DNA from: Mobula hypostoma
Taxonomy: Eukaryota
DNA length: 64,000 bases
NCBI RefSeq assembly: GCF_963921235.1
Contig: NC_086097.1
Span: 118,794,001 to 118,858,000 of the forward strand
Direction: 5' to 3'
Each line of letters starts with the position of its first letter. The first letter of the stretch is position 1. A program made the position numbers and the translations under genes. The notes beneath the pieces were generated by a model. That model worked only from the letters and a program-made list of their open reading frames with translations, did not search any database and was not told the DNA's origin. Shown piece by piece: positions 190 to 61,119 of this stretch.

Positions 190-415
190 ATAGCCAGGTA
201 AATGGGCTGAAGTTTGGCAAATGGCTTTCAATTTGTTTAAGTGGGGTGTGTTGAATTTTGGAAAGTCAGAACAGATAGGGCTTAGGAGGACAAGTACATA
301 GTTCATTGATGTGGTATAGATGATAGACAGGGAGGTGAAGAAGGTATTTTGGCATGCTGGCTTTCATCAGGCAATGCAACAAATAAAGGAGTTCAGACGT
401 TACGTTGCAATTGTA
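190..415 (+). mobile_element. Old, degenerate CR1 LINE RT C-terminal fragment
   Basis: ggtaaatgggctgaagtttggcaaatggctttcaat reads (G)KWAEVWQMAFN, resembling 'GEWANSWQMQFN' in the better preserved CR1 copies of this window; heavily decayed. Confidence 0.55.
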
Positions 416-1217
416 CTTTATTTCCACTGTTTTCCTCCTCATTTTAGCAGACTCATTTCAATAATTAAAATGAAATCTTTATTCTTCAAGATGATTTTGC
501 ATAAGTAGCAAATATTGCAAATAATATTACAACAGTTAATAATAAATAAATAAGTTAAAAATGTGTATGTCCAAATGACATCCATGCAAGGCTCTGTTAG
601 AAATGGGAGTTCATTGAAGAAGACGACTGTTTCCGCAGACTGAATAAATTCTAACACAGACATATTTAGGTAGAAAACTGTAATTATCCAAGGAATTTGT
701 TTATATTGAGTAATAGGGTAGATGCTTTAAAAAAAATCATTTAAGATGACCAGTTGAATAAATGAAACATAGCAGGGAAATTACAATTTCAAGAAATTAA
801 ATGTGAGTCTTACTAAACTGATATAATAGATGGGAGAACTTCATGAATGAAAGCAGTCCAACAGAGATGGGCATTATGATTTTCAGAACGCCTTCCATAA
901 GGCACCTCACAAGAGAGTACTCTACAAAAAAGGACCTTGCAGAATTAATGATGGCCTGCTGCAGATTAAAACTTTGCAGAATTCCCTTTGGAAAAGTGTT
1001 TTATCATTGGAATATGATCAATTCGTACTGGACCTTTATTTTCTGGATGATTCTGAGCTTGTGCTGCAAATGAAATGAAAATCCCCAAATATCAATGTTG
1101 TTATCTGTATTAGTTTTGATCAGCGATGTCTTTATTTTCCCTCTATTATCTTTTTCTTTGACTGTTTTGTTCATTGAAAACTGTTGTTTTCAGGTCCTTT
1201 GTTTTAGTTGGAAGCAT

Positions 1218-2195
1218 TAAGATAAGATCAGATAAAATAAAACTTTATTATTTCAAAGGAAATTATTGTTGCAAGGTTGTTCAGTCAGAAATATATACTT
1301 TAAAATACAAAATGTAAGCATTGAGGTATGAAAAAATACAAAATGTGCATAAAAATAATAGTGTAAAATAAAAATGTGCAATGAAACCATAGACTTATAT
1401 ATATAAGGAGGAGGCATTGTAGTGTCTTACATCCACAGGGAGAAGGATCTCCTGTGGCATTAAAGGTGCTCCTCTGTTTGCCCAGTATGTCATTGTCCGT
1501 AATGCACCTTAGCTTCTGCATCCTCCTCTCAGACACAACCACCAGGGAATACAGTTCCACCCCCAGATCAGAACCAGCCTTCCTGACGAGCTTACCGACC
1601 TCCCTGGCATCAGCTGCTCTCACCCTGCTGCCCCACAGACTACAGCGTAGAATAGAATGCTGGCCACCGCTGAGTCATAGAACATCTGTAGCACAGTACT
1701 GCAGACGTTGAATCACTGGAGCCTTCTTGGGAAGTACAGTCGGCTCTGCCCCTTCTTGTACAGAGCCCCTGTAATTTTAGTCCAGTCCAGTTTATTGTCC
1801 AGGTGAGATCCCAGGTATTTGTAGTCCCAGACGACTTCCACATCCGATCCCCTGATGGAGATAGGAATGCAGGGTGTTTTCACTTCCCTGAAGTCCACCA
1901 CCAACTCCTTTGTCTTAGTGATGTTGAGTTACTGGTGATTCAGCCCACACTACTTAATTAAAGTTGTCCACTACTCTTCTGTACTCAGTTCCTTGACTCC
2001 ATCTGCCCACATCTGCCAAATTGTCTGAAACTTTCTGTAGGTAGCAGGACTCCAAGTTGTATCTGAAGTCCGAGGTGTAGACAATGAACAGGAGGGGGGT
2101 CAGGACAGTCCCCTAATGTGCCCCTGTACTGCTAACCACAGTATCTGAAACACAGCTCTGCAGTCTCTGGGCAGGCCATCTAGACAGGTAGTTAA
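1218..2195 (-). mobile_element. 5'-truncated Rex1/Babar-like LINE (RT C-terminus plus 3' tail)
   Basis: ORF 1713-1904 MVVDFR...YKYLGSHLDNKLDW...KKGQSRLYF is homologous to ORF 25464-25988; upstream on the minus strand lie GAH*GTVLTPLLFIVYTSDF-like and QKVSD motifs; short-repeat tail near 1218-1250. Confidence 0.85.
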
Positions 2196-2657
2196 TACAT
2201 TTGACATTAAAATTTGCTACTGTTAGAGAATACTGAATCCTCTGAAGTGACCCTGCATGAACTCCTTCAAGAGTTATAAATCACATACATTGATAGAATC
2301 CTTAATGGGTTTCATTGAGAGGTGCCTAGAGGAAAGTCCCTTTAGCAAGTGCAAATGTCAGTCTCCATGAAGATCTGTTTAAAGCAAGCTAGTATGTCAG
2401 TACAGTAAATGGATTATCTCCCTTGACACATTTTGAAACTTGACATCCTCAGTTTTATTCCACTTAACATGGCAATTCTGCTGGAACAGTTTTAAAATCA
2501 AGACAATCAAGTTGTGGAGTGGCAGAAGTGGATAAAATAGTTCTCTGTGTTGGACCAAAAAAAAACCTGCCTTAGTACTGCACCTTGCAGCAGCTTCTTG
2601 TATATTAGTGTTAATGTAGTGACCATAAACTTGTTGAGAGGGTCCACAGAGTATATA

Positions 2658-5018
2658 TGCTCATTGGCCATTTTATTAGGTACCTCCTGTACCTAATAAA
2701 GTAGCCATTGAGTGTATGTTCGTAGTCTTCTGCAGTTGTAGCCATGCACCTCAAGGCTCAACGTCTTGTGGGTTCTGAGGTGCTCTTCTGCACATCACTG
2801 TTGTAACATATGGTTATTTAGGTTATTGTTATAGGGTAACATAATTGAGAGAAACATACATAATTTACAACCACTGAAATTGAGTTGGAGTTTCAATTTA
2901 ACAGGCTGGTCTGATGTGATTATATTGTTCCAGGTTTTGGAATTCAATAAAATGCGTTATAGGTTTCATTAAGCAAAAAATGCCTCACTTTGTTTTATTT
3001 CCGAAAACCTATGTTGATGGCCCCGACGCTCTAGGATGATTCCAGAGTTATTGAATATTGAATGCAGGTGCTTTGAAACTGCTGGAGCTTTGGGAGCAAA
3101 ATGCCATGGCTTGGTTTGTGCAAGTTGAGACCGTTAGCTCTGTGAGAAATCTCTGCTGACAGCACCAAATTCTATTATGTGCTACTGTTGCTCAGCAATT
3201 CCATGGCAGCAAGGGTGGTGAGTCTGCTTGAACACCCACCTGAACACACTAAATACCGATCACGGAAAACCAACTTTTGGACTATTAGAGACTGAGCGCA
3301 CAAAACAGTTGGTCTCCTTACCAGGCCTTGGCGATAATTGGCCTTTGGATATAATGGTCCGCATGCTGTCTCTCCTGGGAAATCACCATCCTTGTTTTGT
3401 TTTTAAATAAATCTTCATGCAGCAAATGCCTCATCCAGTCTACATAGTCCTTACGAATGCACCCCAGAAGGTCTATAGGCTGACAGTCTACACTCAGCTG
3501 GGCAGCAGTGCATCATTCCTCCTTCCTTTCTCTGCCTTAATAAGTCTGTTTAGCAAGGCCTCCAGCATAAGGACGTGCGTAGCTACGAAACAAATAACGT
3601 CAGGTCTGTGTTTTTACCACGCATGCTTTGGTACAAGCTCTTGGAAGTGCCACTCGCCTTGCAGCTTCAACAGTGCTAGCACATCAGGACATCAGAGGGC
3701 TGTGAACACATGGGCCCCAGCTGCCAGAGTGGCTTGCTCACCACAGACACCCTGGCAAGGTGACGCTTCCTGTGTGACACGGGTGTTCAAGTGAGTGTGC
3801 AGTCAGCATCGCCTATTGATGAGACGGCAAAGAGCAATGAAACCTTGCTGGAGGTCGCCAATGGCAGCAGGATCTAGACTTATGGGACACGATAGGTGAT
3901 GCTCTGCCTCTGTGGGTAACCTTACATATAGGACTTCGTCCTGGCTGAAGTGGCTAGACCTCTGCCCAGTGCAGATTTCCTGTGTGCCCGAAGACTGGTG
4001 GTTGATCTTAAGAACTGCCATCTGGTGGATGCCAAGGACTATGGGTCATTACCCTGCTGCCCCAGGAAGTTCCCCACCATGACTCATTCAAGCGCGTGTG
4101 AGTTAACGCGGCTGCTGGGCAAGTTCCCAAACCTCACAAAGCCCACATTATCCATGACAGTCAAAAAACGTGGGGTAAAGCACCACCTTCCCACGAGAGG
4201 CCCACCAGTGCACGCCTGTGCGCATAGACTGGACCCAGAAAAGCTAACAACGGTGAAGGCTGTTTGCCAATGTGAAAAGACTCATCATTTTCTGCCAGTC
4301 GAATAGCCCCTGAGCTTTACCCCTTCATACGGTCTCTAAGTCCAATGGTGGTTGCCGCCTGTGGACGGAGAAACGTAGCATAGGTTTTCCAATGGCTGAT
4401 GGACTCTGTATTAAAGAACTTAGATTTTCTTTTTCTTTACCTGGATGACATACTTGTCACTAGTGCATTCAAATCTGAACACGTATTTTATCTCCGCACA
4501 GTTTTGCGTGCTGAAGCCAACACAGGTTGATTATTAACCCTGCTAAATGCCAGTTTGAGTTATGAACCATTGACTTTCTGGGCTATCGCATCTCTGCAGA
4601 AGGTGCAAATCCCCTCCTATCAAAAGTAGACACTATTATGAATTTCTCACCATCCCACACAACTGAAAAAACTACAGGAACTTTTAGGCATAATGAATTT
4701 CTATCACCACTTCATTGCAATTTTTCCCACAGAACTGACTCTCACTGGATGTTATTTGTTTTCTGCACGATTCTCTCTAATTTCTGGATACATTTGTGCA
4801 TGAAAATCCCAGGGGATCAGCAGTTTCTAAGATACACAAGCCACCCTGTCTGGCACCAACAACCATTGCAGAGTCAGAGTCACTTAGAAGAACAACTGAA
4901 CCTCTTGACCATGCCTGCATGCTTTTATGCGTTGAGTTGCTGCAACATAATAGGCTGGAAAGATATTTGCATTAACCAGCAGGTGTATAGGTGCACCCAA
5001 TAAAGTGGCCACTGAAAG
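2658..5018 (+). mobile_element. Tc1/mariner-like MITE split by a Gypsy fragment (left part 2658-2826, right part about 4719-5018)
   Basis: TIR-like ends (tgctcattggccattttattagg ... cccaataaagtggccactga) flanked by TA; both halves are colinear with the intact copy at 38250-38811. Confidence 0.8.
2827..4718 (+). mobile_element. Truncated Gypsy LTR retrotransposon (short LTR about 2827-3012, decayed gag, protease and RT start)
   Basis: TG start and AATAAA at about 2947; degenerate PBS-like ttgatggccccgacg at about 3014; gag-like LKLLE.WEQNAMAWFVQVE...DSTKFYYV; ORF 3950-4306 (VKHHLPTRGPPVHA..RLDPEKL); YLDDILV at about 4437-4457; no 3' LTR seen. Confidence 0.8.
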
Positions 5019-5439
5019 TAGTTTTCAGTATTGGAACAAAAAGAAATGCTGGCTTAATACTACAACTCATTGCAGCATCCTGTACATTAGTGTTAATGCA
5101 GTAATCATTAACCAGTTGCCAGAATACACAGAGCATATATATAAGGCTGACATACCACAGCATTTTGTTTCCAGCAACAACATTTGTCACTTTGCTCGTA
5201 CAAGACTTTCTAAGGAGCAATTCAGGCATAGCAATGGATGCATGGGCTCTTTTTTGTTGGCATCAGTATAAACGTTAAGCATTGATGACTGGAATGAGCC
5301 AGCAGAGATAATGAGCAGGAAAGTTGCAATCAATCATTTTGTGCTTACCTCATCACAGACATGAGAAAATGTGTTAGCTGGACTGAAGGAAGAGAAAAAG
5401 GAGGTGGAAGTTGAGTAAAAGGCTGTCAGAGCAGAGGAC

Positions 5440-5899
5440 AAGTTGCATCAATACACAAATTGGAAAGGTCGGTTACAGACTGAATCGAGGCGGTGTGGTC
5501 CAGTCCCAGAGCGTATCAAAGTCCCTAACCCAATGTTTGGACAACGATTTAAGCACTTCCCGAATTGGAAAGGTCGTGTACAGGCCAAATCGGAAAAGTC
5601 GGGATATTGGGACCTGAGGCGAGGGACGGTTCAGCTCACTGTTCGGAGACTCTGACTCGGCTCTGCACTGATCTGGGGCTGTTGCTTCATGCCTGTGGAA
5701 GGACTGTCTTTTGTGGATTTCACTTCTGAATGCTGTAGCTTGCTTTTATTTATTGTTTACATGATTTGTTTTTATTCTGCATGTTGGGTACTTGTTGTTC
5801 TTTTTTTACTGGATTCTTCTGGGTTTCTTTGTTCTGTGGCTGCCTGTAAGGAGACAAATCTCAAAATTGTATAATGTATACATACTTTGAACTTTGAAC
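5440..5899 (+). mobile_element. Non-autonomous retroposon carrying the shared LINE-like 3' tail
   Basis: Ends in aatctcaaaattgtataatgtatacatactttgaactttgaac, a tail seen on several other elements here; internal direct repeat aattggaaaggtcg at about 5458 and 5563. Confidence 0.55.
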
Positions 5900-6561
5900 A
5901 ATGTAGGACAGTTTTATCCTCTATATTTTGCCAACTTAACCAGAGATTTTTTCACCTCTCCATGAAAGAAATAAAGAGCATGCATTTCAGGCTGAGACCC
6001 TTCATCAGGACGTGGCTTGATATGTCAATTTTTATTCCTTTACATTGGTGGTGTATAGGGTGCACGAGAGGGGTAGCACCTCTAGATGGGAGGCTCGTCG
6101 CACTCCTTGGAGTGGCTCGTCATCTATTACTCCCCACCAATGCTCAGCTCTCACCTGTGGCTCCTCGTAGCTGTTTGCATGTGACAGCAGCCACATCCTG
6201 GGCAATGGCTTCGACAGGCCGGCTAAACCAAGTGAGGGTAGCCAATGGGTCTGAAACCCTGGGTGAGATAGGAATTTGCTCATTGCAGCATGTGAAGACT
6301 GCTTCGGTGGATCAGGCAGAGGAAACCCCGGGGGTTCAACGGCTGAGAAGGCGTTGCAGCAGCGCATTGTGGAGTGCGTAGGGCATGGCAGAGCACTTGA
6401 GAAGATGCGGTCATCCAATGCAGCCAAGGAAGTTGCCAGACGTAACCATTCTTCATGCCACTGGATCCTGACTTCTGAGGCCAAGAGAGTGAGAGCATCT
6501 CTGTGCAAGGCTTTTCCACTTTAATATCTTTCACGCACTGGTTACATTGTGCAAAAGGTCA

Positions 6562-8110: not shown

Positions 8111-8787
8111 TCAAGAAATTTGCCAGGCAGAGGAATGGTTATATATAAAGGTCTCAAATGCAGGGTTTGGACACAAAGCTTTGACTTTCCAATTCTCTCT
8201 ATAGGTGCTGCCTGACTCAGTTACATTTCTTCAACAGCTTATTTGTTGCTTCAGATTTCAGCATCTGCTGTCTCTTTTATCTCCACTCTTTCGAGGGTGC
8301 TGAGAGTGTGGAAGATGCCAAATAAATCAACTCTTTCCTTTTCTCTTCCTTGTATTCGAGTTTAATCCAAACCATTCAAAACCATTGAAGTGTTCTAAGG
8401 ACCTTTTTTTTTCTATTTAATCCCTGCTTTTTTATGACAAGACCTATAAACCAGTTTTGCCATTGGTGGACTATGGTGTCTTCTCAAATCCGGGTTTTGT
8501 TTTTAATATAATGTTAGCATAGCTACACAGGCATGCAAGGTGTTACACAGAGGGTGAGTTCTCCACTTAAATTTGCTGCAATATTACATATAACATCTAT
8601 CAGGTTTATAAATTCTCTACTTTCCTAAGTATCCTAATGATCCTGCAGAGTTGCACCTCAATTGAACTGACCTGCTATAAAAAAATGAATGGCTGTTTTG
8701 CCTTGAAATCAAAGTCACTGGGCCAGATTATCCAATTGCCACTCATAATATGTGGTGGTTACTCCATTTAGTGATGGAATGTTATCG

Positions 8788-9209
8788 TGTTACCCGGTTT
8801 GGATATGGCCCAAGTGTGGAGTGAGAGACACTGAAGCAGGTCGATAGTTCACAGACGTTAATGCAAACAGTGTTAAAGGAAAAATAAAACAATAAATGCT
8901 AGGCCAACCAGGGCCATTAACTAAAACTATCAAATGGAAAGCAAAGCCTACTCTGTGGCTGAAAATAGCATCTGAACTTTAAATGAATACCACTAGTCTT
9001 CAGACTACCTTGACAGTCCAGTTTCTCAGGGAAGACCGAATGGAAACAGGCAGCAAAGCATTGCTGTGCTCTGTCCAAGTCTTGACAAGCACTAGGACGA
9101 CACGTATGGAGTTAAATACTATCACGATTAAATAATAATTAGCTGGCACGTGCATATTCACAAGTGCAATTGCTGTATCTACTGCGCTGCCGAATCAGTA
9201 GTTGTGACA
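8788..9209 (-). repeat. 3' LTR of the sushi-like element (422 bp)
   Basis: TGTTAC...GTGACA termini; colinear with 17930-18356; minus-strand polypurine tract agagagggaggccc immediately internal (9210-9223). Confidence 0.95.
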
Positions 9210-9249
9210 GGGCCTCCCTCTCTAGGTGCAGCCCCTGAGACACCACAGA

Positions 9250-10561
9250 CCTGTGTCTGCTGGAAGTCCCGAATTAGCGACTTGTCCAAGATGTCCTTTG
9301 CCTGGATCCAAGTACATTCTTCTGTGCCATACCCTTCTCAGCTCATAAGGTACCAGACCTTACCACGTACCCGGCAAGATGCCAGGAGGCGCCACACAGT
9401 ATAGACAAGGGAACCATCCACCAGGTGGGGAGGAGGGGGAGAAGGGGTGACTGGAGCCAGGGGAAAGGTAGTAACCGGCTGGAGCTGGGAAATATGGAAT
9501 ACTGGATGGATCTTCAGTGATGTTGGTAGACGCAATTGATAGGACACCTTGTTGACAGCCTTTTCCACTACAAATGGTCCCATGTAGCGCAGTGCCAATT
9601 TCCGGTTCTCGACTTTCAGGGGACGATACCTTGATGCCAACCAGACCTCCTCTCCCAGCTTGAATGGACTTACCTGTCGATGGAGCCGATCAGCCTGCCG
9701 GGAATGCTGTTTCTGGCCAAGCAGCAGAGAAACCCTGGCTCATCTCCAGGTGTGCTTGTAGCACTGGATCAGCTGATCAGGGAAGAACGGGGTCTAGAAT
9801 CTCTTCTGGCATTCAAAGGGAGACATACCGGTAGACAGCAACCAGAGGTTATTGTGGGTGATCTCTGCCTAAACCAATTGGGAGCTCCAGGATTTGGGGT
9901 TGGAAGAGGCGAGACAATGCAGGATTGTCTCTAACTTCTGGTTCACTCTCTCAGTTTGGCCATTAGATTGGGGGTGGAAGCCAGAAGGGAGACTGGCGAA
10001 GGCTCCTATGAGAGAACAGAAAGCCTTTCAAAAGCAGGAAGAGAACTGTGATCCACGATCAGACACTATGTCTTGACGAAAGGCATGGAGCCTAAACACA
10101 TGTTGAACCATGAGTGTGGCAGTCTCATGACTCAATGGGAGGGCAATGTGGTGGGCAGTCTTGGAAAATTGATCCACAATGACCAAAATGGTGGTGTTTC
10201 CATTAAACAGGAACAGACCACTGATGAAATCTACTGAGAGGTGGGACCAAGGGCGGTGGGGCACAGGCAGTGGACATAACAGACCTGCAGGACACAGGCG
10301 TGATGTCTTGTTCCGAGTGCAGATGGGACAGGCAGATACAAATTTGCGGACATCCTGTGACATAGGTGGCCACCAGAAGTGTCCCTTTATAAGCTCCTGA
10401 ATCCGTTGAGTTCCCGGATGTCCAGCCAGACAAGAGGAGTGGAATGTACTGTAGCAGGGGCAAACGGCCAGCTGGGAAGTACCCCACTCGGGCTTGGACC
10501 TGATTGTTGGGCGGCCCTCACCACTGCCTCTGTTCCCCAGATCACCGGAGCAATGATACAC
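9250..10561 (-). pseudogene. Gypsy integrase with HHCC, core, GPY/F and chromodomain (frameshifted)
   Basis: HSS..GHPG...C..C zinc finger; [80 protein letters not shown] chromodomain. Confidence 0.93.
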
Positions 10562-10599
10562 GAGCGAGGAAGAATGGGCTCTGGATCAGCATTGTCCTC

Positions 10600-11536
10600 A
10601 GATCCGTCAGACTGCCAGGAGAGAGCGTCAGCCTTTGTATTCTTGCTGCTGGGATGATAAGTGAAGATGAAATTGAACAGTGTGAAGAAGAGATCTCACC
10701 AGGCTTGACGAGAGTTGAGTCTGTTAGCATTCTGAATATAGGAGAGGCTCTTGTGATCTGTCCAAACAAAGAATAGATTATTTTCAAGAAGGCATCTGAG
10801 TACTCTCCAGATATGCTAGACGTGCTACTGATGAGAGCGGGAATAGATAAGGATGTCATCTAAATACACAAACAGAAGTTGGCTCAACATGTCCCTGAGC
10901 ACATTGCTAACCAAGTCCTGGAATAATGCAGGGGCGTCGGCCAGAAGAAAAGGTCTCAACAGGTATTCAGAGTGGCCATTAGAAGTGTTGAAAGCTGTTT
11001 TCCACTCATCTTTGTCTCTTATGCGTATCAGATTGTAAGCATTGCGCAGATCAATTTTGGAAAATATAGTTGCTCCCTGGAGATGTTCAAACACAGATGC
11101 CAGCAAGGGAAGAGGGTAGTGGTTCTTCACAGTGATGTTGTTCAGGAGCCGATAATTGATGCAGGAACAGAGCTTGCCACCTTTCTTGTTCACAGAAAAG
11201 AGGCCCGCTTCTGCCGGTGAAGTTGACGGACGGATAAACCCCACGTTCAATGGCTCCTTAATGTATTCCCCCATGGCCACCATTTCAGGATGAGAGAGGG
11301 AAAAGAGCCAAGCCCGGGGAGGACTAGTGCCAGGTAGGAGGTCTATGGCACAGTCGTATGGCCGCTGTGGGGACAGGATGGTGGCCTTTCTTTTACTGAA
11401 AACCTCAAGGAGATCTGAATTTTCAGCTGGAATCCCAGACAGATCCACATCTTTAGCTGACACAGGAGGGGATTCATGGAACTGAACTTGAGCCAGACCC
11501 GGACAGGTAGACGGGCATGTCGTTCCCCTATCTGAG
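10600..11536 (-). pseudogene. Gypsy reverse transcriptase fused to the RNase H tail by an internal deletion
   Basis: [53 protein letters not shown]; then LLENNLF is joined directly to FVWTDHKSL at about 10770. Confidence 0.93.
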
Positions 11537-14500
11537 AAACATAGAAACAGAGAAAATAGGTGCAGGAGTAGGCCATTTGGCCCTTCGAGCCTGCACCGCC
11601 ATTCAGTATGATCATGGCTGATCATCCAACTCAGAACCCTGTTTCTCTCCATACTCCCTGATCCCTTTAGCCACAAGGGCCATATCTAACTCCCTCTTAA
11701 ATATAGCCAATGAACTGACCTCAACTGTTTCCTGTGGCAGAGAATTCCACAGATACACCACTCTCTGTGCGAAAAAGTTTTTCCTCATCTCGGTCCTAAA
11801 AGGCTTCCCTTTTATTCTTAAACTGTGACCCCTCGTTCTGGACTTCCCCAACATCGGGAACAATCTTCCTGCATCTAGCCTGTCCAATTCCTTTAGAATT
11901 TTATATTTTTCAATAAGATCCCCCCTCAATCTTCTAAATTCCAGAGAGTATAAGCCTAGTCGATCCAGTCTTTCTTCATATGAAAGTCCTGCCATCCCAG
12001 GAATCAATCTGGTGAACCTTCTTTGTACTCCCTCTATGGCAATAATGTCTCCTTAGATTAGGGGACCAAAACTGCACTCCAGGTGTGGTCTCACCAAGGC
12101 CTTGTACAACTGCAGTAAAACCTCCCTGCTCCTGTACTCAAATCCTCTTGCTATGATGCCAGCATACCATTCACCTTTTTCACTGCCTGCTGTACCTGCA
12201 TGCCCACTTTCAATGACTGATGTACAATGACACTCAGGTCTCGTTGCACCTCCCCTTTTCCTAATCGGCCACCATTCAGATAATAATCTGTTTTCCTGTT
12301 CTTGCCACCAAAGTGGATAACCTCATATTTATCCATATTAAATTGCATCTGCCATGAATTTGCCCACTCACCTAACCTATCCAAGTCACCCTGCATCCTC
12401 TTAGCATCCTCCTCACAGCTAACACTGCCGCCCAGTGTCGTGTCATCCGCGAACTTGGAGATGCTGCTTTTAATTCCCTCATCTAAATCATCAATATATA
12501 TTGTAAACAGCTGGCGTCCCAGCACTGAGCCCTGTGGTACCCCACTAGTCACTGCCTGCCATTCTGAAAAGGTCTCGTTTATTCCCACTCTTTGCTTCCT
12601 GTCTGCCAACCAATTCTCTATCCACATCAATACCTTACCCGCAATACCATGTGCTTTAAGTTCGCACACTAATCTCCTGTGTAGGACCTTGTCAAAAGCC
12701 TTTTGAAAATCCAAATATACCACATCCACTGGTTCTCCCCATCCACTCTACTAGTTACATCCTCAAAAAATTCTATGAGATTCGTCAGACATGATTTTCC
12801 TTTCACAAATCCATGCTGACTTTGTCCGATGATTTCACCGCTTTGCAAATGTGCTGTTATCACATCTTTAATAACTGACTCCAGCATTTTCCCCACCACC
12901 AATGTCAGGCTAACCGGTCTATAATTCCCTGGTTTCTCTCTCCCTCCTTTTTTAAAAAGTGGGGTTATATTAGCCACCCTCCAATCCTCAGGAACTAATC
13001 CAGAATCTAAAGATTTTTGAAAAATTATCACTAAAGCATCCACTATTTCTTGGGCTACTTCCTTAAGCACTCTGGGATGCAGACCATCTGACCCTGGGGA
13101 TTTATCTGCCTTTAATCCCTTCAATTTACCTAACACCACTTCCCTACTAACATGTATTTTCCTCAGTTCCTCCATCTCACTAGACCCTCGGTCCCCTACT
13201 ATTTCCGAAAGATTATTTATGTCTTCCTTGGTAAAGACAGAACCAAAGCAGTTATTCAATTGGTCTGCCATGTCCTTGTTCCCCATGATCAATTCACCTG
13301 TTTCTGACCGTAAGGGACCTATATTTGTCTTAAGCAATCTTTTTCTTTTCACATATCTATAAAAGCTTTTACAGTCAGTTTTTATGTTCCCTGCCAGCTT
13401 TCTCTCATAATCTTTTTTTCCCTTTTCTAATTAAGCCGTTTGTCCTCCTCTGCTGGACACTGAATTTCTCCCAGTCTTCAGGTGTGCTGCTTTTTCTGGC
13501 TAATTTGTATGTTTCCTCTTTGGAATTGATACTATCCCTAATCTCCCTTGTCAGCCATGCGTGCACTACCTTCCCTGGTTTATTCTTTTGCCAAACTGGG
13601 ATGAACAATTGCATGGTTCATCCATGCGATCTTTAAATGCTTGCCAATGCATATCTACTGTCAACCCTTTAAGTATCATTTGCCAGTCTATCTTAGCTAA
13701 TTCACGTCTCATACCTTCAAAGTTACCCTTCTTTAAGTTCAGAACCTTTGTTTCTGAATTAACTATGTCACTCTCCATTTTAATGAAGAATTCCACCATA
13801 TTATGGTCACTCTTACCCAAGGGGCGTCTCACGACAAGATTGCTAATTAACCCTTCCTCATTGCTCAATACCCAATCTAGAATAGCCTGCTCTCTAGTTG
13901 GTTCCTCGACATGTTGGTTCAGAAAACCAACCCGCATATATTCCAAGAAATCCTCTTCCTCAACACCCTTACCAATTTGGTTCACCCAATCTATATGTAG
14001 ATTGAAGTCACCCATTATAACTGCTGTTCCTTTATTGCACGCATTTCTAATTTCCTGCTTAATGCCATCCCCAATCTCACTACTACCGTTAGGTGGCCTG
14101 TACACAACTCTCACCAGCGTTTTCTGCCCCTTAGTGTTATGCAGCTCCACATTCTCCAGGCTAATGTCCTTCCTTCCTATTGCATGAATCTCCTCTCTAA
14201 CCAGCAATGCTACCCCACCTCCTTTTCTTTCATGTCTATCCGTCCTGAATATTGAATATCCCTGAAAGTTGGCTCCCATCCTTGGTCACCCTGGAGCCAT
14301 GTCCCTGTGATCCCAACTATATCATATTCATTAATAACTATCTGCACATTCAATTCATCCACCTTGTTACGAATGCTCCTGGCACTGACACACAAAGCCT
14401 TCAGGCTCACTTTTACAACACTCTTAGCCCTTACACAATTATGTTGAAAAGTGGCCCTTTTTGATTTTTGCCCTGGATTTGCCTGCCTGCCACTTATACT

Positions 14501-15494
14501 TTTCACCTTACTACTTTTTGATTCTACCCTCATTTTACAACCCTCTGTCTCTCTGCACTTGTTCCCATCCCCCTGCCACATTAGTTTAAATCCTCCTGAA
14601 CAACAGTGGCAAATGCTCCCCCTGGGACATTGGTTCCAGCCCAGCCCAGGTGCAGACCGTCCTGTTTGTACCAGTCCCACCTCCTCCAGAACTGGTTCCA
14701 ATGCCACAGAAATTTGAATTCCCACCCCCCCCCGCACCATTTTTTCAAGCCACATATTCATCTGATATGTCCTCCTATTCCTATTCTGACTAGCATGTGG
14801 CACTGGTAGTAATCCAGAGATTATTACCTTTGTGGTCCTACTTTTTAGTTTATCTCCTAACTCCCTAAATTCACCTTGTAGGACCTCATCCCATTTTTTA
14901 CTTATATCGTTGGTACCTATGTGCACCATGACCACTGGCTGTTCACCCTCCCACTCCAGAATTTCCTGCAGCCGCTCAGAGACATCCTTGACCCTTACAC
15001 CAGGGAGGCAACATACCTTCCTGGAGTCTCGTTTGTGGCCACAGAAACGCCTATCTATTCCCCTTAAAATCAAATCCCTTATCACTATAGTTCTCCCACT
15101 CCTTTTCCTTCCCTCCAGTGCTGCAGAGCCACCCATGGTGCCATGAACTCGGTTGCTGTTGCCTTCCCCAACAGTATCCAAAACAGTATATCTGTTTGGG
15201 AGGGAGATGACCTCAGGGGACTCCTGCACTACCTGCCTACTGCTACACTGTCTAGTGGCCACCCATTCCCTTTCTGTCTGTGTAGCCTTTACCTGCGGTG
15301 TGGCCAACTCACTGAACGTGCTATTCACGATTTTCTCAGCACCACGGATGCTCCAGTATGAATCTAGTCGCAGCTCCAGCCGCTCAATGCGGTCTGCCAG
15401 AAGCTGCAGCTGGACAAGTTTCCTGCACACACAGTTGTCAGGGACACTGGAAGTATCCCTGATTTCCCACATGCTGCAGGATGAACAAACCATG
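11537..15494 (-). mobile_element. Near full-length CR1 LINE (ORF1 zinc finger/esterase; ORF2 APE endonuclease plus RT), frameshifted, inserted in Gypsy pol
   Basis: ORF1 MVCSSCSMWE..; VCCLPG..VHIGTND (SGNH-like); EN motifs VIMGDFN, LGKSDHN; RT motifs NYRPVSL, YLDFQKAFDKV, GVPQGSVLG, KFADDT; tail agaaacatagaaac at 11535-11548; GAG duplicated at 11534-11536 and 15495-15497. Confidence 0.95.
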
Positions 15495-17908
15495 GAGTAT
15501 CTTCAGAGACCAATTGATCCGTGGGTTATATCGAGGTAACCGGGGAGACCAAGTACCAGTGGCAGTTCAGGTGAATTAACCAGATAGAAAGATATTTCTT
15601 CATGATAGTTTCCTTCGAGCACCAGTCGGAGGGGTTGAGTGGAAAGGTGGATCTGGCCGGTTTCCAGAGGTCGACCATCCAGCACCTTGACGTTGATCTT
15701 TTCTCTCCATTCCTGAGTTGGAACTCCCCATCTTTGAGCGACAGAGATGTCCATAAGATTCCCGGCTGCACTGGAGTCATTAAACGCCTTAAGTTTATGG
15801 GTCTGATAATTCCACAACAAGGAAGCTGCGAGCATTACAGAATGAGGGGAAGCTGACTGAAGAGAGAATCAACCCGTCAGGATTCCCCTCCCTGCTGACA
15901 GGTATTCTCGTTTACCAGACGCTTGGAACATGCCGCCCGGAAGTGTCCTGGATCACCACAATAGAGGCAGGAACCTGTTCTCTGGCGCTGGTCTCATTCC
16001 TCCTGAGACAGGCGCATGTGTCCCACTTGCATAGGCTCCTCCGTGGGCTGGGTGCTGGGTGGTGAGGGAGGGGTAGAGGGCGACGAAAGTTGGTGATCAG
16101 GCGGCACGTAAGAAGTTTGAACATTCTTTCCCTGTGCTATTCAGTTACCCGGTCGTCAACTCGAACAGCCAGATTAATCAGGTCATCCAGACTACCTTGC
16201 TCATCCTGGACAGCAACCTCATGCCAGATCCCTGCATTCAGTCCACGCTGGAAGGCAGTGATGAGAGATTTCTCATTCCATCCCATCTCTGCTGCAAGGG
16301 TATGGAATTTAACTGCTGTGACGACAAACCAAGTTATCAGAAGATAGATGCTGATGAGAGAGATAAGGGAGACAATGGAGAAACATTCAAAATGCTAATA
16401 AGAGAGAAGAGAGAGATTAACGAGAAAGAAACACATTTCAGAATATTGACAGACCGGCTGCTTTGAACCTGAACTGGTTGAAGTTTGATGGACAGGCGAT
16501 ACCCCAGCAGGGGGATAAAAAGAACAAGTTCGTTAAGGCTCGACACACACCATGAGGTAATGAGACCCTGGAAGAGCGGTGTGCCCCCACAAGTTGGTGA
16601 GAGTTGGAGGTCTGGTTCGAGGGAACCGATCATAGACTGACAGGGTGAAAAGGGACGATCGGTGGGAACCTGGTATGTGTGTCCACCCTTGCCTGGGTGC
16701 CGGGTTCACCGCGGAAGAAAGGTCGTATCCAGAACGGAGGGGTCACAGTCGGTGACCACAGAAGACATTAAAGGGTTCGCCCGAAAGCTAACTGCGAAGA
16801 ACATCAAAGGTCTGTTTGAATCAAAATTTCCATTCTCTCTCTCTCCAACGGCACAACAACGATTATTGCAAACTGTACTAAGCTGAACTGAACTCTGCGT
16901 CACTTGAGACTGATCATTTTACCCCTAGACTGCGATAGAGCTTGGTTGATTCCTATTACCCTAGTTCTGTGTACATGTGTGTTTTATCATTGCTAACTTG
17001 TTGCATTTATATCCTTACGATTAGAGTACTGTGTTACTTATTTCTTTAATAAAACTTCATTAGTTTCTGTTAAACCAGACTCCAACTAAGTGGTCCATTT
17101 CTGCTGGTTTGGCAACCCAGTTACGGGGTACGTAACACTGCATAGACTCTCAACCATTCTTCTACCTTGGCACAGGTCCAAGAGTCAGTGGGCAGCCTCC
17201 TGACCCCATACTGGAAGATCAAGCACCCTCCTTAACTCCACCACAAAATGTCAGAACGACTGGGCTGCGGGGTATCTTTGCTCCTGTAAAGCATTGAACA
17301 GGCTGAGTGGAGGTCCGTCAAGAAGATTGACTATGTACGCCAATTTTCACGCATCACCACCAAAATGACTAGGCTGGGCTTGGAATGTCAGCTTGCATTG
17401 GGTGATAAAATTCCTGCAACCATCAGGATCAGCGGAATATCTGCCTGGTGGTGGAATCCTCGGTTCCTATACGGTGGTGGGAGTCGGCTCTGGTCCAGGC
17501 GTGGGAGCGGGAGCATTAGTAGCAGAGATTGTCGGGGCAGCAGGAAAGGAGTTATCTGCGAGATGCTGGGAGTGGGACTGAGGCGGCCTGAAGCTGCTGA
17601 ATTGCGTTGGCGAGAATGTTAATGGCTGTCAGCTGATGCTGGCTGTTCACAGTAAGTTCGTGGTCAGCGGCCGTGAGTGTGGAAATCGCAGACACCTGAG
17701 TCCAATTGTCTGTGGTGAGCTGTTGAACAATTGCGGCTAGGAACGATACCTTTTCCTCCAAGTGAGACTGGGCTTGTTGGCCCAAGATTATCTGCCTCAT
17801 TGCCTCCATAATTTCACTGAGAACAGATTCCATTTCCTGTAGCTTGTCTCCTACCTGACCAATGAATCTCACGGCCAAAGTCAGCTGCTCTCTCTCTGCT
17901 GGGTCCAC
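15495..17908 (-). pseudogene. Gypsy gag and aspartic protease remnants, interrupted by a solo LTR
   Basis: Start (GTG)DPAEREQL at 17908; YAVKFHTLAAEMGWNE restored across the insertion; CLYCGDPGHFRAAC zinc knuckle at about 15929-15970; protease-like KAFNDSSAAGNLMD and ELPLVLGLP. Confidence 0.88.
16317..17137 (+). mobile_element. Solo LTR (821 bp) of an unrelated LTR element, inserted in gag
   Basis: TGTGACG...CGTAACA inverted termini; 4-bp TSD CTGC (16313-16316, 17138-17141); TATA-like GATAAAA at about 16514; AATAAA at 17048; removing it restores the gag reading. Confidence 0.9.
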
Positions 17909-17929
17909 CTTTGTGTGGTCGAGACTTGC

Positions 17930-18356
17930 TGTTACCCAGTTTGGATATGGCCCAAATGCAGAGTGAGAGACACTGAAGTGAGTCGATAGTTCACAAAATT
18001 TTAATGCGAATACTGTTCAAGGCAAAATTAAACAATAAACGCTAGGCCAAACAGGGCCGTTAACTAAAACCCTCAAATGGAAAATGAAGCTACCCTGCAG
18101 CTGACAAGAACATCTAAACATTAAATGAATACTGCTAGTCTTCAGAGTCAGTTAACATGACAGTCCAATTTCTCAGGGAACGCCAAATGCAAATAGGCAG
18201 CGAAGTGTTGCTGTGCTCTGTCCAGGTCTGGACAAGCACTAGGACGACAAGTATAGAGTTAAATATTATCACAATTAAATAATAATTAGCTGACACGTGC
18301 ATATTCACAAGCCCAATCGCCGTATCTACTGTGTTGCTGAATCCGTGGTTGTGACG
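17930..18356 (-). repeat. 5' LTR of the sushi-like element (427 bp)
   Basis: Colinear with 8788-9209, roughly 85% identical by eye; terminal CA mutated to CG; lies 21 bp from the gag start. Confidence 0.95.
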
Positions 18357-19445
18357 TATTGTCTTCACAGGAGCACCCACTCATCAGCGATCAATTGGTG
18401 ATCTGATTTTTTTTCCAAGTGCCAGTTTTTTGCTGTGGTGCTATTCTCGTCCGAAGTTCAGAATCCCTCCAGACTTTAGAAGGTGACTATTATATCTGGT
18501 GATCTGGCTTAAGTCAACAAAACTGTGTGTCAAGAGACCTCTGGATTAACAAAACACCAGCAAGGAAAGGCACTCTGTGAGTCAGACTGGTTAGCAAAGT
18601 AAGAAGACCATTCCAATATTACACTTTATTGGATTCAATTGAATTAGCAGCTGAAATATCTTTTTCACCAGGAAATACTTGATATAGAAAACTTTACGTC
18701 CCTACTTTATCATTTTTTGTCATCTGTTCAATACCGGAGATTCACAAGGAGCAACTCTCAGAATTGCATGTACGCATTACAAAGCCACTGGTCTGTGACC
18801 AATATCACACTGTAGCCATTTGCTTTTATTATTATTTTCAGAATGTTGTATGGGATTGCATATTCACCACTGATGCTGACTCACCTGGTGCATTTCTAGC
18901 TGTTTCAGTTTTTGTTATAAGTTACATTGCATTGTACAGAAGGCGTGCAGGACATGAGCTGAAGGCTTGTCAGCTGACTTACTCCCACTGCTGATTAGAC
19001 AGAACCTGAATAGTACTGCTGCTTAAAGAAAAGTTCCAAACATTGATTGATAATGAAATATGCAGGCAGATAACAGGGAAGGGGAAATAGTATATTGAAA
19101 TAGATATTGAAAGGAGGAATAACAAAACAGTGGAAATTCTAAGGGCCTATGAACAAAGGAAAAACAGCAGTGGTTTAAGTTTGCAAGCTTTAACATAAAA
19201 AATGGAATAAGCTCTAAGCATCTATGGTAAAAGGAATTAACATTTCTCTGTAAGTAATTCCACGTTAAGCATGTGTGTGAACTCTTGCATTTGTAGTTAT
19301 ATTGCTTGGATTGGTGTAACGTTTGTAATTATGAAAGTCTACATATAATTAGATATTGTTAGTGTCCATGAGAAGTGATGATACAGTCTGTACTGAACAG
19401 GGTAGCTGGCCGCTGACCTCCGATGGGAATTCAACAAGGACAACA

Positions 19446-21557: not shown

Positions 21558-22000
21558 CGAGGGGTGATTGATAAGTTTGTGGCCTAAGGTAGAAGGAGTC
21601 AATTTTAGAAAACCTAGCACATTTATTTTCAACATAGTCCCTCCTACATTTACACATTTAGTCCTGTGGTCGTGGAGCATACGGATCCTGGACCTCCAGA
21701 AAGTGTCCACATCAGGGGTGATTGATAAGTTCGTGGCCTGCGGTAGAAGGAGATGAGTTATACGGTTCTTGTTACATGCACGTGCAGTTCAACTCTTTGA
21801 GTGATTATGCAGAAAGTTTGAAGTTAATAACTTATCAGGGGTGATGGATAAGTTCATGGCCTAAGGTAGAAGAAGATGAGTTATTAACTTCAAACTTTTT
21901 GCATAATCACTCAAAGAGTTGAACTGCACGTGCATGTAACGAGAGCTGTATAACTCATCTCCTTCTACCTTAGGCCACAAACTTAATCAATCACCCCTCG
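21558..22000. mobile_element. Mariner-like MITE (443 bp) with reiterated TIRs
   Basis: TA|CGAGGGGTGATTGATAAG ... ATCAATCACCCCTCG|TA; TA TSD at 21556-21557 and 22001-22002; internal TIR copies at about 21713 and 21836. Confidence 0.9.
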
Positions 22001-46768: not shown

Positions 46769-48181
46769 AATTATAGACCGGTTAGCCTAACGTCGGTGGT
46801 GGGGAAACTGCTGGAGTCAGTTATCAAGGATGTGATAACAGCACATTTGGAAAGCGGTGAAATGATCGGACAAAGTCAGCATGGATTTGTGAAAGGAAAA
46901 TCATGTCTGACGAATCTCATAGAATTTTTTGAGGATGTAACTAGTAGAGTGGATAGGGGAGAACCAGTGGATGTGGTATATTTGGATTTTCAAAAGGCTT
47001 TTGACAAGGTCCCACACAGGAGATTAGTGTGCAAACTTAAAGCACATGGTATTGGGGGTAAGGTATTGTTGTGGGTGGAGAATTGGTTAGCAGACAGGAA
47101 GCAAAGAGTGGGAATAAACGGGACCTTTTCAGAATGGCAGGCAGTGACTAGTGGGGTACCGCAAGGCTCAGTGCTGGGACCCCAGTTGTTTACAATTTAT
47201 ATTAATGACTTGGATGAGGGAATTAAATGCAGCATCTCCAAGTCTGCGGATGACACGAAGCTGGGTGGCAGTGTTAGCTGTGAGGAGGATGCTAAGAGGA
47301 TGCAGGGTGACTTGGATAGGTTGGGTGAGTGGGCAAACTCATGGCAGATGCAATTTAATGTGGATAAATGTGAAGTTATCCACTTTGGTGGCAAAAATAG
47401 GAAAACAGATTATTATCTGAATGGTGGCCGATTAGGAAAAGGGGAGGTGCAACGAGACCTGGGTGTCATTGTACACCAGTCATTGAAAGTGGGAATGCAG
47501 GTACAGCAGGCGGTGAAAAAGGCGAATGGTATGCTGGCATTTACAGCGAGAGGATTCGAGTACAGGAGCAGGGAGGTACTACTGCAGTTGTACAAGGCCT
47601 TGGTGAGACCACACCTGGAGTATTGTGTGCAGTTTTGGTCCCCTAATCTGAGGAAAGACATCCTTGCCATAGAGGGAGTACAAAGGAGGTTCACCAGATT
47701 GATTCCTGGGATGGCAGGACTTTCATATGAAGAAAGACTGGATGAGCTGGGCTTGTACTCGTTGGAATTTAGAAGATTGAGGGGGGATCTGATTGAAACA
47801 TATAAGATCCTAAAGGGATTGGACAGGCTAGATGCAGGAAGATTGTTCCCAATGTTGGGGAAGTCCAGAACGAGGGGCCACAGTTTGAGGATAGAGGGGA
47901 AGCCTTTTAGGACCAAGATTAGGAAAAACTTCTTCACGCAGAGAGTGGTGAATCTGTGGAATTCTCTGCCACAGGAAACAGTTGAGGCCAGATCATTGGC
48001 TATATTTAAGAGGGAGTTAGATATGGCCCTTGTGGCTACGGGGGTCAGGGGGTATGGAGGGAAGGCTGGGGCGGGGTTCTGAGTTGGATGATCAGCCATG
48101 ATCATAATAAATGGCGGTGCAGGCTCGAAGGGCCGAATGGCCTACTCCTGCACCTATTTTCTATGCTTCTATGTTTCTATG
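46769..48181 (+). mobile_element. Young 5'-truncated CR1 LINE with an uninterrupted RT ORF
   Basis: Near-identical to the reverse complement of about 11537-12925; tail ttctatgcttctatgtttctatg. Confidence 0.95.
46796..48082 (+). CDS. CR1 ORF2 reverse transcriptase domain and C-terminus (428 aa, partial, no EN domain)
   Basis: QHGF..KSCLTNL, YLDFQKAFDKVPH, GVPQGSVLGP, SADD (FADD in the sister copy), LVRPHLEYC, TRGH; no stops or frameshifts. Confidence 0.85.
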   Translation: MVGKLLESVIKDVITAHLESGEMIGQSQHGFVKGKSCLTNLIEFFEDVTSRVDRGEPVDVVYLDFQKAFDKVPHRRLVCKLKAHGIGGKVLLWVENWLADRKQRVGINGTFSEWQAVTSGVPQGSVLGPQLFTIYINDLDEGIKCSISKSADDTKLGGSVSCEEDAKRMQGDLDRLGEWANSWQMQFNVDKCEVIHFGGKNRKTDYYLNGGRLGKGEVQRDLGVIVHQSLKVGMQVQQAVKKANGMLAFTARGFEYRSREVLLQLYKALVRPHLEYCVQFWSPNLRKDILAIEGVQRRFTRLIPGMAGLSYEERLDELGLYSLEFRRLRGDLIETYKILKGLDRLDAGRLFPMLGKSRTRGHSLRIEGKPFRTKIRKNFFTQRVVNLWNSLPQETVEARSLAIFKRELDMALVATGVRGYGGKAGAGF

Positions 48182-59133: not shown

Positions 59134-61119
59134 AGATTACTCAAATAATATTGAAATATTAAATGCACAGCAGGAACCACTCAATATTTTTATAACAGTG
59201 AGGCAGAATGTGTATGTGGTTGAGTGGGATCTGGGACCAGCCATGGTGGAAGGGTGGAGCAGACTCGATGGGCTGTATGACCTAATTCTGCTCCTATGTC
59301 TTATGGTGTGATGGACCTGAGATATCTCCATATGCACACATGCAATAAGTACCCCATTCACCCAAGATGTCCACATATGCATGAATGCAGTTTAGACAGC
59401 AGTGATTAGCAATTAATGCGCTGGTGTGAACACCTAGGTATTTGAAAATTATATGTAACCTAACTGAAGCATTATGAATGATTTGTAACTGTAGAAGTAA
59501 TTTGTTGTTACCTTTGATCTTTAACATATAAACATATGATGTACCACTGGGTCAGGGAGCCTCTCTCTGGAGTGACTCCAAATGCAACCAGCTTGTGTGT
59601 GTCAAATAATGACATCAAGTACTACCAGATTCTTACTCTCAGGAAGCTATCATTGACAGTCACAGCACCCTGCATTCCTCTAAACTCCTAAAGAGAGAGA
59701 ATGATTAAAGATTAGCTTTATTTGTCCCATATACATTGAAACATTGAGACATACAGTGAAATGTGTCATTTGCATCAACGACCAATATAGACCGAGGACC
59801 GTGCTGGGGGCTGCTCACCACACTGCTGGTGTCAACATAATATGCCCACAATTCACTAATCCTAACCATATACCTTCAGAATGTGAGAGGAAAACAGATC
59901 AGCCAGAGAAAATCCATGCAATCACAGGGAGAACTTACAAACTCCTTACAGACAGCAGTCGGAGGAATTGAACCCCAGTTGGTGATCTCTGACATTGTAA
60001 ACCATTGCGCTAACCGTTATGCTACTGTCCCACCTTCGTATACAAAGATATTTGGGTAAGTACATAGATTGCATATTTCTCTTGATTTTCTTTATAAAAG
60101 TTCTATAAGATCTTTATTACCCATTTCAGAGGATGTCTGACACATTATCCATGATGTACCCAAATACCTTTGGAACTGGTATTTAAGAAGCAAAGACACA
60201 TCCAGGTGAACATTTTTTGAGGAGTCAAGTGTAACAAGCAGTTTTTGTTATGAGCAAGAGAAAATATGCAGATGCTGGATAACCAAGCAACATACACAAA
60301 AGCTGGAGGAACTCAGCAGGTCAGGCAGTATCCATGGAAAAGAGAACAGTTGATGTTTCAGGCTGAGACACTTCAACAGAACAGTCCTGATGAAGGATCT
60401 TGGCCTGAGACGTCGACTGTACTCTTTTCCATAGATGCTGCCCAGCCTGCTGAGTTGTTCCAGCATTTTGTGAGTTTTTGTTATATCATCTTTAACTCAG
60501 ATACACTGAATACGCTGAGGAACCGTTCATTGCCAGGAAATGGCTGTAGTTGGCTAGTGTCAGCTGGGACTACATCTGCAACCATCCACTGAAGCACTCT
60601 CTCCCCTGAGTTACATTCCTGATAGTCCAAAATCCTACTCCAGAGATTTAAACAAAATTTACTTTGAGCTTTGAAGAAAAGCAGGAAAAATCTCCCTCAC
60701 ATCTCAGAGATAATATTTATTGCTCAAACACTGAAATATTTGATCATAATGACATTTCTGGAAGATTATTGTGTGCAAACCAACTGCCAAAAACTCCCTC
60801 TGCTGCAACCAGCATGTTTCCTTGTGGGCAACAAAGTTGTTTTAAGACAAGTGGAAATGAACGTGTACTTCAGTGTTTCACACTGGGTGTGATGTGTTTA
60901 GTAATGTTCTGAAGGTGACATGGAAGGTGGTATCTCAGTGCCAATTTATTTTTTAAATACTGTATGTCACTTCTCTCCAAATATGAAACATTTGTCCCAT
61001 TATGGCTTTGTGCATGCAAGTAACACACAGAAAATATACTTATGTTAGCTGTATCACAGAACCGCCTGTAAGACATCCAAAGAGATACACACAAACCCAG
61101 TAGTCAACCATAACACTTT

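Follow-up and report, generated by a model that had tools for sequence, protein, structure and literature searches.

Self-priming, in which the 5' end of an element's own mRNA primes reverse transcription, is described as common to the Tf1/sushi elements of fungi and vertebrates in the relevant parts of PMC10085805, PMC6317226, and PMC4600332, with which those of PMC5341516 agree; PMC3601003, PMC2864245, PMC3035444, and PMC4340606 contribute little more. The relevant passages report experimental demonstration for Tf1/Tf2 of Schizosaccharomyces pombe (PMC4600332, PMC5341516, PMC10085805, PMC11042837) and prediction for plant Tcn1 chromoviruses and TAR copia elements (PMC6317226). A 'pretzel' of three duplexes has been described, with Butler 2001 cited for vertebrates (PMC10085805, in part). 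In the available portions of these sources, self-priming of the vertebrate Tf1/sushi group is inferred from sequence, and the experiments cited are those on yeast Tf1/Tf2 only.

A first-pass annotation of the window, as we call the whole 64,000-nucleotide stretch of DNA analysed here, had assigned such a mechanism to a chromoviral Gypsy element and had rightly presented it as already known from Tf1/sushi. The observation is real, well supported, and expected for the clade of the element, for which self-priming was already predicted. With the vertebrate Tf1/sushi group (V-clade of GyDB, including sushi-ichi and Amn-ichi), as far as the available source portions describe it, the element shares the chromodomain Ty3/gypsy type, the absence of a tRNA primer-binding site (PBS), a PBS complementary to the predicted RNA start, and a U5-leader duplex; nothing fundamental differs, and it represents a further family in another host. 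Like Tf1/Tf2, it and the related families studied here have a primer of 10-11 nt whose first base is a purine preceded by a pyrimidine and which lies about 30 nt past a TATA box (in Tf1, that of the LTR), and, according to the same portions, a duplex 3' of the PBS. In contrast to Tf1/Tf2, R measures about 240-650 nt in these families and, with so short a leader, the stem doubles as coding sequence. The source places the start of the Tf2 PBS at the LTR end, whereas the families studied pair positions 2 or 3 to 12. The Tcn1 chromoviruses and TAR copia elements, from other hosts and clades, share a self-complementary PBS that the source passage predicts from sequence. The locus thus adds one more family, and its comparison with relatives yields a map of the leader that covariation supports and that covers the primer register, the bulged U5-gag stem, and the invariant C, pinpointing individual bases worth testing in an active fish element.

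Element anatomy and clade placement

The element, a decayed copy, belongs to a high-copy family of chromoviral Ty3/gypsy retrotransposons of the Tf1/sushi type, likely from a vertebrate, and is composed as follows.

17930..18356, minus strand: 5' LTR (427 nt; first base in the present copy not the usual T)
8788..9209, minus strand: 3' LTR (422 nt, TG..CA ends)
18357..18361, minus strand: left target duplication (5 bp with one mismatch, 4/5 to 8783-8787)
9213..9223, minus strand: polypurine tract ahead of the 3' LTR
18000..18005, minus strand: ATTAAA, resembling a poly(A) signal by motif only
9242..17908, minus strand: broken gag-pol (RT, integrase zinc finger and core, Tf2-1-like SH3, chromodomain)
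16317..17137, no strand assigned: insert in gag (821 nt, TG..CA ends, 4-bp duplication), resembling a solo LTR of another family
11535..15502, minus strand: nested LINE (about 4 kb, ends approximate; esterase-like, endonuclease, RT)

The two LTRs are identical at only 358 of 421 aligned bases, indicating that the copy is old, and gag-pol contains many stops and frameshifts. When family copies from sequencing-run contigs are aligned, the alignment breaks at 18355, beyond which the flanks are unlike. The first ORF of the nested LINE is esterase-like, and an inverted partial copy of this LINE is located at window 46769-48178; with 92-95% identity between the two, the nested LINE must be younger than its host element. 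Two close inverted repeats at window 21726-21985 (111-nt arms, 93% complementary) and 60298-60468 (85-nt arms, 79% complementary) are unrelated to the element.

Pfam identified RVT_1, Integrase_H2C2, SH3_Tf2-1, and a chromodomain (28.4 bits against a cut-off of 25.1, one stop being read as X) in the element, with rve below its cut-off, and RNase H and protease were undetected by Pfam in the pieces of the element scanned. The domains follow the Ty3/gypsy order, RT preceding an integrase with a C-terminal chromodomain. The RT is 65-68% identical to its best full-length relatives, the named ones of which are from fishes and amphibians, pointing to a vertebrate host. It is found inside a clade of 47 rows (SH-aLRT 97) that also holds 22 of 23 self-matching loci, in a quick tree where the window row is a long branch and named sushi, Tf1, and Maggy sequences are absent. 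The identity to fish sequences and the 47-row clade group the RT with vertebrate chromoviruses. By its sequence, the element belongs to the vertebrate clade of the Tf1/sushi group and displays the group features tested. An Rfam search returned nothing relevant within the element, and no tRNA genes were found in the window.

Primer-binding site and its complement in the LTRs

17918..17928, minus strand: PBS (positions 2-12 past the LTR end; no TGG)
18223..18233, minus strand: predicted self-primer in the 5' LTR (9/11 to the PBS), the putative first 11 nt of the RNA
9076..9086, minus strand: primer motif in the 3' LTR (10/11 to the PBS)
18259..18265, minus strand: TATA-like box in the 5' LTR (same spacing in relatives)
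9112..9118, minus strand: TATA-like box in the 3' LTR (TATTTAA)

The first-pass annotation had noted that no tRNA-type TGG follows the 5' LTR and that 17928-17918 is complementary to 9086-9076 at 10 of 11 and to 18233-18223 at 9 of 11 positions, with the LTR motif about 32 nt past a TATTTAA. Our sequence check agrees on all of these points, including coordinates and counts: TATTTAA begins 32 nt ahead of the primer motif in both LTRs, a second TATTTA lies 16 nt farther upstream, and each motif is the best PBS-pairing site of its respective LTR. A 10/11 match was reached by 5 of 3000 shuffled 3' LTRs, and 10 of 2892 internal 11-mers of the element pair equally well with the 3' LTR. A 9/11 match was reached by 102 of 3000 shuffled 5' LTRs, and the 5' LTR match is therefore weak taken alone. 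The latter figure, together with a whole-region folding z of about -1.4, is what could be said for regarding the matches in the window copy as chance inverted repeats.

Contigs of four public sequencing runs (three organisms) were aligned to 17700-18420 at 80% likeness, and since 199 to 6463 contigs per run align, the family is abundant. The pairing base accounts for 81-88% of the depth at position 18230 and for 97-100% at position 18225 across the four runs, in contigs that leave primer and PBS letters unlinked on single molecules. The PBS is free of variants among the 40 variant rows listed, besides which there are 238 weaker rows. Both positions that are mismatched in the window copy thus read the pairing base in most copies, and the improved complementarity across the family that the first-pass annotation had named as a test of its proposal is found. 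Its suggestion that the present GTG start was ancestrally ATG is likewise borne out by the other copies, which have a standard start codon at position 17908 in 88-96% of the depth (four runs). We infer that the mismatches in the window copy reflect decay after insertion.

Covariation of primer and PBS among related families

A polymerase alignment search provided the best 80 of 227 metagenome loci, plus 36 loci in prokaryotic genome records. Of these, 33 close-relative metagenome loci that retain the gag start and whose LTR end could be recognised were condensed into 24 families; relatives without the gag 5' end, three loci with no recognisable end (L012, L043, and L049), and distant loci were left out. 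The metagenome loci are probably of fish origin, judging from their sequences. The eukaryotic Ty3/gypsy sequence in the 36 prokaryotic genome records (L085-L120) is likely due to binning contamination, and searches of viral contigs turned up 3, 1, and 0 loci, without a useful one among them.

A perfect 10-11 nt complement of the PBS is present in the family's own LTR, in the same register, in 15 of the 24 families. This complement ends at PBS position 12, except in L033, where it ends at position 15 and the boundary may have been placed 3 nt away from its true site. The nine families without a match comprise eight with only 126-423 nt upstream and L019, with a tail that has no polypurine tract, and are explained by the absence of the needed part of the LTR; among loci scored beforehand as having enough LTR, 18/20 match (12/13 families). 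When PBS and LTR were paired across families, only 3 of 364 combinations reached 10 nt, each of them involving families whose PBS cores are identical. Among the 15 matching families, 13 different 10-mers occur, each opening with a purine after a pyrimidine and thus initiator-like. An AT-rich hexamer is found 28-32 nt upstream of the motif in 13/15 families, counted with looser TATA patterns that were picked after the sequences had been inspected, and the strict TATWWA in 7/15. A screen of all 120 loci that used no PBS pattern arrived at these sites again and, in addition, at L045. The window element has the register and TATA spacing of the matching families.

These results leave almost no room for chance inverted repeats, which are refuted by the family copies, the cross-family matches, and the stem covariation (see below): register and spacing in the window copy are the same as in 15 families, and the other copies of its family are more complementary, not less. 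Priming by a host tRNA or tRNA fragment, with the LTR match incidental, would have a precedent in the half-tRNA priming that a passage of PMC6317226 describes for some copia groups. However, a tRNA-type TGG is absent past the LTR in the window copy and in the 24 families, and the PBS varies between families and is matched by their own LTR, not by those of other families, making this explanation highly improbable.

The family therefore very probably used the initial 10-11 bases of its own RNA to prime reverse transcription, as read from a sequence layout that is backed by same-family copies and by covariation over 15 families and that upholds the proposal of the first-pass annotation. TATA spacing, the pyrimidine-purine step, and the sharp end of the pairing point indirectly to an RNA start at the first base of the primer, and transcription would begin at the purine opening the LTR motif. 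The capped 5' end of the RNA would then fold onto the PBS through its first 10-11 bases, the loop holding the PBS being closed by a U5-gag stem that may fill the structural role of the Tf1 U5-leader duplex. RT/RNase H would cut after base 10 or 11 and extend the resulting piece, as in Tf1.

Two distant loci were noted in the pattern-free screen. L045 (positions 1-80) is an element with 42% identity that has the same 3-12 register and a following CA, and L086 is an ambiguous candidate.

U5-gag stem, leader folding, and the gag start codon

17947..17975, minus strand: U5 arm of the U5-gag stem (3-nt bulge)
17882..17908, minus strand: gag start region forming the 3' arm of the stem (non-standard first codon in the window copy)
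17933..17947, minus strand: weak U5 hairpin (-4.0 kcal/mol; unconserved in relatives)

The imperfect stem between U5 and the gag start that the first-pass annotation had described, with a U5 arm reading CCAT, is confirmed. In the window copy, the U5/gag duplex reaches -36.2 kcal/mol, which none of 200 shuffles equalled, and folding of the whole 131-nt region gives a weak z of about -1.4 to -1.5. The overlap of the stem with gag probably follows from a leader only 16-21 nt long. In a MAFFT alignment of 23 families and the window (L010 being omitted for its long U5 loop), 8 of 13 pairs change on both sides, with 17 such compensatory cells against 5.2 in shuffled alignments (0/500). The stem cells are paired in 81%, against 29-48% when slid, for a structure that was drawn from the aligned sequences themselves and is thereby favoured over the slid control. 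The stem comprises two helices, the first of 6-7 bp, with a bulge of 3-4 nt in the U5 strand between them; RNAalifold alone found five of the stem pairs. The cognate U5/gag duplex averages -28.4 kcal/mol, compared with -21.8 kcal/mol for other partners, and ranks top among 25 partners in only 9/25 cases because the arms are conserved. The changes in the stem alter Gag residues 2-3 (MDPA, MNPA, MDTA, MDSA, MEPA), so that the Gag N-terminus follows the RNA.

Folding of the whole leader gave weak z-scores, and the primer:PBS duplex rarely forms. In equilibrium folding from the predicted start, the mean primer:PBS pair probability is at most 0.12 in 10/13 families and 0.00 in the window copy, whose 5' LTR motif folds on itself owing to its own mismatches. 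The poor folding of this duplex could reflect chaperoning by Gag or a weakness of the method for loops of 300-600 nt. The duplex of U5 with sequence 3' of the PBS corresponds to one part of the Tf1 'pretzel'. A third, Tf1-like duplex 5' of the PBS was not found: it beats shuffles in 1 of 13 families, and most families have a weak U5 hairpin or none. We thus do not file the element as a full 'pretzel'. In one related family (L010:80-150 and L011:150-225), a U5 loop of about 80 nt forms two hairpins at -27 kcal/mol; it looks tRNA-like, a resemblance for which neither Rfam nor ARAGORN gave support.

The first-pass annotation had further proposed that the stem sequesters the gag start and couples translation to priming, and this part is poorly supported. 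A stem kept mainly to hide the gag AUG, switching the RNA between translation and priming or packaging, would fit the window family, in which all three AUG bases can pair, and the 20 of 24 families with an ATG at the stem end; a ribosome at the AUG would have to open a helix over +3 to +13. However, a pair to the A of AUG is present in only 6/22 sequences and one to the U in only 8/23, and the conserved helix starts at the G, spanning gag bases +3 to +13. Moreover, four families (L028, L032, L033, and L042) keep the stem with an in-frame ATG inside the PBS or the last six LTR bases instead, meaning that the PBS is translated, and a duplex of this kind is present in the 5' UTR of Tf1 (PMC10085805, in part), so priming alone explains the stem. 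We consider such a switch unlikely. Across the families compared, the stem is conserved and the hiding of the AUG is not, as far as the aligned sequences tell, which weakens the case for start-codon concealment as the purpose of the stem. An effect of the stem on translation is possible, with the helix covering +3 to +13. The position of the ATG past the LTR end varies from 17 to 20, so that the frame from LTR end to ATG is unconserved. The unusual ATG sites are L028:1263-1275, L032:150-170, L033:135-160, and L042:209-230, and two database proteins (P0042 and P0078) start like the families whose PBS is translated.

An invariant C after the PBS

17916..17917, minus strand: CA at positions 13-14 (C at 17917, where the mRNA cap would fall)

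Position 13 is a C in 24/24 families. The first search pattern demanded CCA; the pattern-free screen, which is independent of that demand, gives a C at 13 in 15/15 matching families and in the distant L045. A pyrimidine precedes the primer in all cases, Tf1 included, leaving the C at position 13 with no encoded partner and opposite the presumed site of the cap. RT can copy the G of a cap. Tentatively, the C might thus be the partner of the m7G cap: while the primer is still attached and capped, RT would copy it into plus-strand strong-stop DNA, and the cap would add a twelfth base to the pairing in priming or in second-strand transfer. A copied PBS is retained at the 3' end of about half of the Tf1 cDNA, and a C follows the PBS in Tf2, according to the portions of PMC11042837 that include supplement table S5. 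No statement linking cap and PBS was found in the literature searched, outside which lie Butler 2001 and Lin and Levin 1998.

The CA may instead be a mere Kozak-like context of translation start that is unrelated to the cap, an idea that we also hold with some doubt. With an ATG at position 17, found in 9/24 families, the A of CA stands at -3; yet the C is kept at position 13 in families whose ATG lies at 18-20 or elsewhere, as well as in L045 and Tf2. If the pairing of the C with the cap is real, the transcript start of any self-priming element could be read from its PBS to the exact base, and RNA structure, not protein function, would account for the MDPA-like N-terminus of Gag. Should it also be absent from the Levin and Butler papers, it would matter to specialists of retroelements.

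The predicted leader (window 17930-18233) contains three upstream ATGs before gag, and relatives have 0-4, so translation of gag must bypass them.
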